The notes under the pieces: generated by a model
Database searches by the model: none
What the model was told of the DNA's origin: nothing
The model's input: the letters and a program-made list of their open reading frames with translations, nothing else
Made by a program: the position numbers and the translations under genes
Shown: positions 11,001 to 14,000 of the stretch, one piece after another
Layout of the letters: the number at the start of each line of letters is the position of its first letter
Numbering within the stretch: the stretch's first letter is position 1
Source: Podarcis vaucheri
Taxonomy: Eukaryota
Length of the DNA: 64,000 nucleotides
Direction: 5' to 3' (one strand)
Assembly (NCBI GenBank): GCA_965113315.1
Contig: OZ220377.1

Positions 11001-14000
11001 AGGCTGGCCCTGAATCTGCAAACCATGGTTTCCAGGGAGCCAGTGTTGTGTCTGCATGGGTCCACCGTCTGTTTTTCTTTCAGATTCCAGGCCAGAATCA
11101 AACTGCACCCTTTGCGTTTTGAGCAACAACAACAAAGACGAGACACAGCTAAGCACACTTCACTTCCCAGAGATTGACCGCGAAGAGAAACACCTGCCTG
11201 TGACGTACCTTCCGACCCATTTCTTCGTTTCGGTACTTCCTGAAATAGCCTGTTCAGGTTCTGGCCTGGATTCTCTGTTGAAAAACAAGTTGGGTAAGAA
11301 CAAAACAATCAGGGGAGGGTGGTTCCGACAATCGTGGCTGTGAGATGCAACAAGAACTGCCTTGTGCTAACCAGGGGCTCGGGAGGAAGGAGATGGGGAG
11401 TGGGGGCAGAAGTGAAATCAAGCAGTTCAAACAAAAAACAAAAACCCCAGGTCTGTTCAGAGCAGCTGGCTACTTTGGAAAGGAAGCAAGGCAGGCTGGT
11501 TGGTTAATGAAGATTACCGCTACACTGAGAAAGGAGATTAGAAAGATATAAATAAACATCTAAAAAGGTACAAAAAGATGAAGACGGGTCAGTAATCCTT
11601 GCAAGAGCCCAAAGGAGGAGAACACAGTACGAGGTGCCACACCACTCCCTGGCAACAAAGGGAAGCTCTGAGTGATCTTTTGCAACTTGCTGTCATTCCG
11701 CTCTCCTTTTCTCAAAAACCTCTGTCAAATGAAATCACGCCAATCAGAAATGAATGCAGCTTCATTTTGGGAGGGGGGGGGAAAGCTCATTTTGCAATAC
11801 TGTACTGTTGCGTAGCAGCACCAGTGAGGTCCTCTGCCCAAAATACTCTTGCGGGGTGGGTGGGTTTTCAGATTGGCACATGATGCTAAGTAGGGGAAAC
11901 CAGATGCACCATAAGCAACAAATGAAATACAGGCGCTGGCAGAGGAGTGGAAGAACATCCTCATCTTTATCCTTACAGCTAGTCATTCCCAGCAGCCAGC
12001 TTTTTGATACTCTTTATTTTCTCTAATAATGAACAATTTTCCAAATCACAATTGGGATTGGCCACGATGTGCCATGAGAGGGAGCTCAGGAGGAGGAAAC
12101 CTGACTTCTCACTTTAGCCACTGGAATTACAAACTTTAACAGGCATCCCCAACCTTCGGCCCTCCAGATGTTTTGGACTACAATTCCCATCATCCCTGAC
12201 CACTGGTCCTGTTAGCTAGGGATCATGGGAATTGTAGGCCAAAACATTTGGACGGCCGCAGGTTGGGGATGCCTGCTTTAAAATATCCACTGAATTCCCT
12301 TCTTCTCCTTCCATGGTTCATATTACATACCATACTTTCCTTCATATTTTACTATAACCATTCAAATCAATTTTCCACTTTCACATCAATCAAATATTGT
12401 TTACTCTGTTGAATTTATCTTAATGCTGTCAGTGTTTTCAGATGTACAATTATTTTCTATATATTCAATAAATAGTTTCCACACTTCTTTAAATATATGT
12501 TCTTCTTGCTCTCTTAATCTGTGTGTCGTACCTGCAAGTTCTGCATATTCTAACATCTTAAGTTGCCAATCCTCTTTACAAGGGACCTCACTCACTTTCC
12601 GTTTTGGGGCCAACAGAATGCGGGCCACTGTGGTTGCATACATAAGTAAACTTGTCTGGCACCTGGGAATTTCTGTCTGGGTTATTCCCAACAAAAAGGA
12701 CTCTGGTTTAAGTCTGGTTTTTAAGGACAAGACACAAGGAAGGCCCTTACCCATGTAAACTTTCTTCATCTGCACCTTCACATGAACTGGCCCATTTACA
12801 TGTTATACGCAAGATAAGGCTATCAAGGGCTAATAGTCATGATGGCAATATCACCTTCCAGGAACAGATGGAGCTTGCCTTAGAATACCAATCCACAGAG
12901 TAGCGGAAGAGTCCGATTGCCCTGCTCTCCTGCTTGGGGGTTTCCCACAGACATCTGGCCATGATAGGAGATGGGATGCTGGACTAGAAAGGCATTTGGT
13001 CTAGATCTAGCAGGGATACTCTTGATGTTCTTATATTCTGGCTGCACCTACCAGGCCACTAGGTACTTCTGTCCTGGAGCACATGTCAATGGGCTGGCAT
13101 GGACTCAGTATGACTGGGTGTGCATACAAAGCTGACTCAGCTACACTTACTGCACTGGACCAGGAAGTTTGTGATTTGAATGATTTCACTCACATCCTTA
13201 AATGCAACTGACAGGGCGTGTGCACAAAGCTTGCACAGATAAGTGCTTTTTAAAGGCCTCATTCCTGCAGAGGAAAGCAAAACCCTGCAGTTGGGATGGC
13301 ACTGCAAGGGGGCAAAAAGCTTCCCCCCCCCATTCCCTAACACCACTGACAGGTGGACCCTTCTCCCTTCCCTTAAGCCAGCTCCTTCTGGCGATGAGTT
13401 TCCAGCACTCCTCTTTCCTGAAAACAAGAGCCTGTTTTGGGACAGGACAGCTCTTCATTCCTTCCCTTCCTGTCAAATTTTAGCTTGCACCCAGTAACAG
13501 GATGCTTATCACTCTTATGACCACAGTTGTTATTTGTATGGGCTAGTGTACAGATCAACACCCTTAGATTAGATTTGCCTCAGTGATAAAGCACATGCTT
13601 TGCTTGCAGAAGGTCCCAGTTTAACCTCTTGCATTTCCAGCTAGGGCCAGGAAGGATCTCTGTTTGAAAACCTGGAGATCCACTGCCAATTAGTGTGCAC
13701 CATATTGAGCTAGAAGGACCAATGATCTGACTTGGGATAAGGCAGCGTCCTATGTTCCTGTGATTTCGCTTCCAGCGTTGATGCCCTTATGGTTTTTCCA
13801 AGCTTTGGCATCAGTAAATGCTTCTTAAAGTCTAGATGTGTGTTTTAAAAAACAGCATAAAAAATCCAGGAAGTGGGTTCCATAATGCACCTTGGGGGCC
13901 AGCTGGATTAACCATGTGTGTTAGGGGAGAGCAGGTTAGGTTCTTCATCTTGCCCCATTGGCAGGTGAACTATGTGACACAGCGAAGCAGGAAAGGGTCT

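Follow-up and report, generated by a model that had tools for sequence, protein, structure and literature searches.

Results

The CUX1 locus and its cassette exon

The 64-kb window (i.e., the whole stretch of lizard DNA that was analysed) encodes CUX1 on its minus strand, as a first, sequence-only reading of this DNA had proposed: the flanking exons mapped by tblastn are ordered and in frame, and a 224-amino-acid stretch of the upstream exon is a 100% match to lacertid CUX1 proteins. All the features described below lie on this strand. The upstream exon (672 nt; 16166..16837, boundaries read off the sequence) encodes the first CUT repeat. Immediately 3' of this repeat lies a 66-nt exon (11209..11274; placed by tblastn and gene models), of phase 1 and with the borders CAG/AG...AAG/GT, which encodes 22 amino acids of the linker that follows CUT repeat 1. 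Its donor, GUACGU, and the conserved donor-proximal intron occupy positions 11182..11208, and a downstream CUX1 exon of 102 nt was mapped by tblastn at 5520..5621. In human numbering the 672-nt exon is exon 15 and the 66-nt exon is exon 16, the number used in the sequence-only reading.

The 22-residue segment is missing from one mammalian CUX1 isoform, and both including and skipping forms are found among the gene models of many vertebrates. Among the 120 CUX1 models listed, of 2621 matches, the 22 residues are present in 52, skipped in 58, and skipped jointly with the next exon (102 nt, 5520-5621) in 10, these counts being of predicted annotation models, and neither of reads nor of inclusion levels. 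Single species among the lizards, birds, turtles, crocodilians and mammals have models of both kinds, as do three cyprinid fish; among the lizards this holds for three lacertids. Judged from these models, the 22-amino-acid exon is a cassette exon, and would have been alternative since the fish/tetrapod split. Its cyprinid version encodes 27 amino acids, 5 more than the lizard exon. A second in-frame GT is located 15 nt past the donor (11193-11192), inside the conserved stretch 11208-11192. Because the exon is 5 amino acids longer in the fish models, this GT may be an older donor; it may otherwise be an unannotated alternative one. A 5-amino-acid difference between lacertid isoforms was considered as a use of the second donor and rejected, as it maps away from that site.

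For comparison, a degenerate exon pattern was used to search metagenome contigs, which yielded one locus (L001), and viral contigs, which yielded none. L001 is a vertebrate CUX1 contig, evidently host DNA among the metagenome sequences, and is 90% identical to the window across the upstream exon. Its source is most likely a bird, because its upstream-exon peptide is an exact match to four bird and four mammal models and residue 6 of its cassette exon is N, as in sauropsid models and in 0 of 7 mammal models. The two species are well diverged, as 42 of the 164 upstream-exon codons differ synonymously, and most of the intron sequence is unalignable between them. The intron upstream of the cassette exon spans ~980 nt in L001 and ~4,900 nt in the window. 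It contains a conserved block (11460..11584, 82% identical in L001), in which UAAY-type motifs and an AG occur. Within the cassette exon, which is identical at 64 of 66 positions, synonymous changes affect 2 of 21 codons, not a significant deficit (p 0.07).

Predicted pairing and conservation of the 3' splice site

The sequence-only reading had pointed to an inverted repeat in which 11082-11097 is complementary, at 15 of 16 positions, to 11259-11274, with an outer match of 11070-11077 to 11280-11287. The 16-nt repeat was recovered by an inverted-repeat search, positions 11259-11274 are indeed the first 16 nt of the 66-nt exon (11274-11209), and the outer match is present in the sequence; the intronic arm, said to lie ~110 nt past the donor, was measured to start at 112 nt. 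The repeat is real but larger than had been noted. Its intronic part, arm A (11067..11108), is a complement of the acceptor region from -14 to exon position +16, and weakly to +28. Folding predicts that arm A forms a 12-bp helix, the longest unbroken one, with exon nucleotides +5 to +16, and a 9-bp and a 4-bp helix with the pyrimidine tract and the acceptor CAG (11275..11288). The proposed pairing between arm and acceptor was retained, in another register: the model prefers the one in which the acceptor CAG/A is itself paired (P 0.66 in the window and 0.81 in L001). A second block, arm B (10611..10639), extends the predicted duplex over the branch-point region (11289..11316), whose candidate branch points, CUGAU (A at 11309) and CUUAC (A at 11295), come from the yUnAy consensus alone.

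The best partner of arm A among 12,697 strand windows is this acceptor, with -39.3 kcal/mol against a mean of -15.1 (sd 4.0), and none of 5000 shuffled versions of arm A reached this value with the acceptor. Pairing of arm B with the branch-point region amounts to -17.7 kcal/mol (26 of 5000 shuffles as good), and arm B alone is weak, at least 12 other sites of the window pairing better by energy. In L001 arm B directly adjoins arm A, the two forming a 70-nt antisense of the acceptor from -42 to +28, in register; the full duplex there has 50 predicted pairs and -53.9 kcal/mol, a value reached by none of 2000 shuffles (best shuffle, -39.5). The 241-nt minus-strand segment that the sequence-only reading had singled out for folding gave a z of -3.31 (0 of 200 shuffles as good), and the L001 fold a z of -2.87, with its long helices surviving in the centroid. 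The probability of the arm A helix was 0.99 in all eight folds that include arm B, and that of the branch helix 0.98-1.0 in L001 and 0.55-1.0 in the window. Burial of the acceptor, suggested beforehand, is thus predicted from both the window and L001, and the predicted duplex extends over the two candidate branch motifs, the tract, the CAG and exon nucleotides +5 to +16. A local 6-bp hairpin within the exon (11258-11239) is predicted to stack on the long helix in both species. Pairing between the first 11 nt of arm A and exon nucleotides +23 to +28 appears when the duplex is taken in isolation; in context a local exon hairpin outcompetes it and its probability is 0.00-0.04, so that we kept it only as a weak option.

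Long imperfect exon-intron duplexes with internal loops have the anatomy of editing-complementary sequences, and with its 50 predicted pairs and internal loops the duplex might serve mainly as a platform on which ADAR, or another double-stranded-RNA protein, keeps U2AF away or edits codons of the exon or the A of the acceptor; any change in splicing would then follow from that protein. Within the first 11 codons, the 52 amniote models that carry the exon differ in residue only by N to S, which A-to-G changes can produce. However, these models are genome-based and A-to-G is a common transition, and the longest unbroken helix measures 12 bp. ADAR2 does edit CUX1 introns in HeLa cells, but at Alu repeats, and the accessible part of that study makes no mention of the cassette exon. 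We consider that such a platform is unlikely to be what the duplex is primarily for.

Pairing energy by itself is only moderately rare. An equally good partner within 300 nt was found for 6 of 399 random positions, and 3 of 13 other mapped acceptors have a partner within 4 kcal/mol. The cost of opening this acceptor in a 280-nt context, 9.4 kcal/mol, falls inside the range of the 13 others (1.2-13.6, at least three of them being placed a base or two off). The case therefore rests on the coincidence of conservation with complementarity. Arm A is single-copy within the window, which contains 8 inverted repeats of at least 15/16 within 300 nt, several of the other 7 resembling transposon hairpins. 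As side observations, predicted partners of -35 to -37.5 kcal/mol lie within 300 nt of the CUX1 acceptors at 18096, 16837 and 2048, and further hairpin-like inverted repeats resembling miniature transposons occur at 12140-12275, 4777-4869, 26558-26648 and 32086-32283.

Identity to L001 is 39/40 over acceptor positions -40 to -1 and 25/27 just past the donor; it is 38/53, plus 21 gap columns, in the loop that precedes arm A, 41/42 in arm A (Fisher p 0.0006 against the loop), and 2/7 just after it. Arm B is identical at 29 of 29 positions (E 1e-8); for the ~70-nt intronic complement as a whole the figure is 69/70. The arm whose conservation the sequence-only reading had proposed to follow among amniotes is hence kept in one other amniote; this conservation comes from two DNA sequences, the window and L001. 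The single difference in arm A sits in an internal loop. Three differences between the species fall in the duplex, at 2 of 31 unpaired and 1 of 100 paired nucleotides (A-U to G-U), and all three are harmless to pairing in the folding model; the contrast between paired and unpaired positions is not significant (p 0.14, or p 0.055 when only breaking changes are counted). Covariation, which had been put forward as a further check, did not appear: between the two sequences, 0 of 31 pairs show a compensatory, two-sided change and 1 of 31 a one-sided change.

Sequences beside alternative exons are commonly conserved because proteins bind them, and the conserved blocks might be linear elements, bound by proteins or regulatory at the DNA level, whose complementarity is idle, left over from an old inverted duplication or coincidental. 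The absence of covariation is in line with this view, as are the nearby conserved block at 11460-11584, which plays no part in the duplex, and the likeness of arm A to a stretch of the terminal arms of the insert described below. However, conservation stops where complementarity stops, the two blocks, although separate, line up in register with neighbouring targets at an energy that none of the 2000 shuffles matched, and a functionless relic would be expected to decay like the unalignable flanks. Idle complementarity is on these grounds quite unlikely, and we retain a conserved duplex as the preferred reading.

A probable fold-back insert between the two arms

In the lizard, arm A and arm B are separated by a 424-nt segment (10640..11063), identified by inverted-repeat search and by comparison with L001, from which it is absent. 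The segment ends in 83-nt terminal inverted arms, is single-copy within the window, lies within a 3-nt internal loop of the duplex and may be accompanied by a target duplication of 3 nt. A transposon-derived fold-back element that entered the lizard sequence is the likely origin; the alternative is a loss in the L001 lineage. The sequence-only reading had recognised no repeat in the arms, and indeed they contain no tandem repeat and no Rfam family (0 matches at gathering score in 64 kb), but the intronic arm adjoins this element. In folds of 721-914 nt of lizard sequence the duplex is unchanged and the insert pairs with itself (P 0.81-0.82); the strong z of such a fold owes much to the insert. 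Fold-back of the insert was rejected as a requirement for arm B pairing, as 22 of 40 shuffled inserts keep a P of at least 0.9 (mean 0.71 versus 0.99 for the native insert).

A stretch of the insert's terminal arms, 11035-10990, resembles the reverse complement of arm A, by chance or by local duplication. It pairs with arm A at -31.7 kcal/mol (2 of 150 shuffles as good), and does so in 2 of 10 window contexts ending inside the insert, in which the probability of the acceptor helix is 0.01 and 0.31. This partial complement was rejected as a lasting competitor, being sequestered once the whole insert is present; according to the folding model it could matter only transiently.

A UGCAUG motif had also been reported in the downstream intron and is present (10929-10924). 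A role for it as a conserved RBFOX site was rejected, as the motif lies in the window-only 424-nt segment and is unconserved: no UGCAUG was found within 836 nt of the downstream intron in L001.

Discussion

We think it fairly probable that a conserved pre-mRNA duplex masks the branch point, the pyrimidine tract and the AG of the CUX1 cassette exon, and that it thereby favours skipping. In the proposed mechanism, ~70 intron bases located downstream of the exon would pair, in the nascent transcript, with the whole 3' splice-site region over ~50 bp. The branch point, the tract and the AG would be hidden by this duplex, and with the 3' splice signals hidden, skipping would therefore likely be favoured. 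In the model, opening the acceptor costs ~5 kcal/mol before arm A is transcribed and 10.6 kcal/mol afterwards, in both species; the jump comes with the completion of arm A, at 125-144 nt past the donor. Since completion comes as late as ~140 nt past the donor, a race can be envisaged: U2AF and U2 would get a head start of a few seconds on arm A, inclusion would be set by the outcome, and elongation rate, helicases or RNA-binding proteins could tilt it. Arm B would be transcribed ~430 nt later in the lizard than in L001, because the fold-back element is inserted in the internal loop.

The exon is part of many annotated major isoforms, so stable burial cannot be the rule, and the duplex might instead promote or time inclusion, for example because the acceptor stays closed while the downstream intron awaits commitment, or because elements further downstream are drawn close to the exon. 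Such a role would suit a donor that lies in the loop and is cheap to open in the model (2.6-2.7 kcal/mol), and it has a precedent in a hairpin-bound protein that promotes eIF4H exon 5 inclusion (PMC4006729). However, the predicted duplex lies over the two candidate branch points as well as the tract and the AG, and the sole named candidate enhancer, UGCAUG, is unconserved. A promoting duplex appears very unlikely to us, and the masking duplex is kept in what follows.

Arm B holds a donor-like motif, GUAAGUAU (10637-10630), identical in L001, which we take to be a perfect intron-side match to U1. At two positions the motif is not a perfect complement of the branch region, and it may be a by-product of pairing with CUUAC. 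As for the protein, the exon carries an invariant hydrophobic-Phe motif, the Phe being kept in the listed amniote models, in 4 of 5 fish forms, which align plainly, and apparently in the fifth too. The cathepsin L sites of human CUX1 are placed at residues 643, 747 and 755 and the exon at residues 632-653, so that the motif would fall on site 643. A bolder scenario, to which we attach little credence, can be built on these elements: an amniote-wide 70-nt antisense zipper would close the 3' splice site, displacement of a strand at GUAAGUAU by U1 or ADAR would toggle the exon, and the switch, because of the motif at site 643, would tune p110 production, lizards showing that it tolerates a self-folding transposon. 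The accessible parts of four reports state that cathepsin L produces p110 CUX1, which is without the first CUT repeat (PMC7272708, PMC8741762, PMC3770232, PMC2248751); the residue-643 site was not found in these parts, nor in that of PMC11763575.

CUX1 acts in development and cancer as a dose-sensitive transcription factor. Its short form arises when cathepsin L cuts past the first CUT repeat, in the linker that holds the optional exon. One duplex over branch point, tract and AG would be an unusually complete and directly testable case. If it holds true, the arms would provide an antisense-oligonucleotide handle on the CUX1 isoform ratio, and non-coding variants of the arm could matter clinically, provided that the human intron keeps it.

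Several known structures resemble the one proposed here. Exon-intron duplexes are edited by ADAR at the GRIA2 R/G site and by ADAR2 at RELL2 exon 3. Like these, the predicted CUX1 duplex is conserved and imperfect, and would join an exon or splice site to a nearby intron arm; in contrast to these, which are edited, it is so far a prediction from DNA. In the open-licence literature we found no description of the CUX1 duplex or of the regulation of its exon, although the full human catalogue of pairs of conserved complementary regions (PCCRs) and RIC-seq supplements (PMC10573301) may list it. The structure is not described in the accessible portions of PMC12838065, PMC5740500, PMC12589426, PMC10393612, PMC12311048 and PMC8741762, and CUX1 is absent from those supplementary tables of PMC8052449 and PMC10691357 that were examined.

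PCCRs likewise include conserved intronic complements of regions that overlap the pyrimidine tract and the acceptor, and 43.2% of the regions overlapping a pyrimidine tract also block the acceptor (PMC8052449). At CUX1, complementarity is above chance and both regions are conserved, here against one ortholog. The CUX1 pairing differs in that it reaches 16-28 nt into the exon, whereas the catalogue extends introns by 10 nt, and in that it covers the predicted branch point, which PCCRs tend to avoid (PMC8052449). MALT1 exon 7 is similar in having structure over the splice signals of a short in-frame cassette exon, an overlap that is predicted in our case; there, structures shielding the splice sites cause skipping and unwinding admits U2AF2 (10.1101/2021.10.12.464102). 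MALT1 relies on local stem-loops and known proteins, whereas CUX1 would use one antisense arm located 110-180 nt downstream and spanning the exon. A structure over an alternative exon is also found in the Drosha-bound hairpin of eIF4H exon 5, but this hairpin lies within the exon and promotes its inclusion (PMC4006729). Taken together, the complementarity at CUX1 is real, conserved and larger than first noted; the function we infer for the predicted duplex is that of the structures that mask splice sites, and it appears to fit the description of PCCRs.
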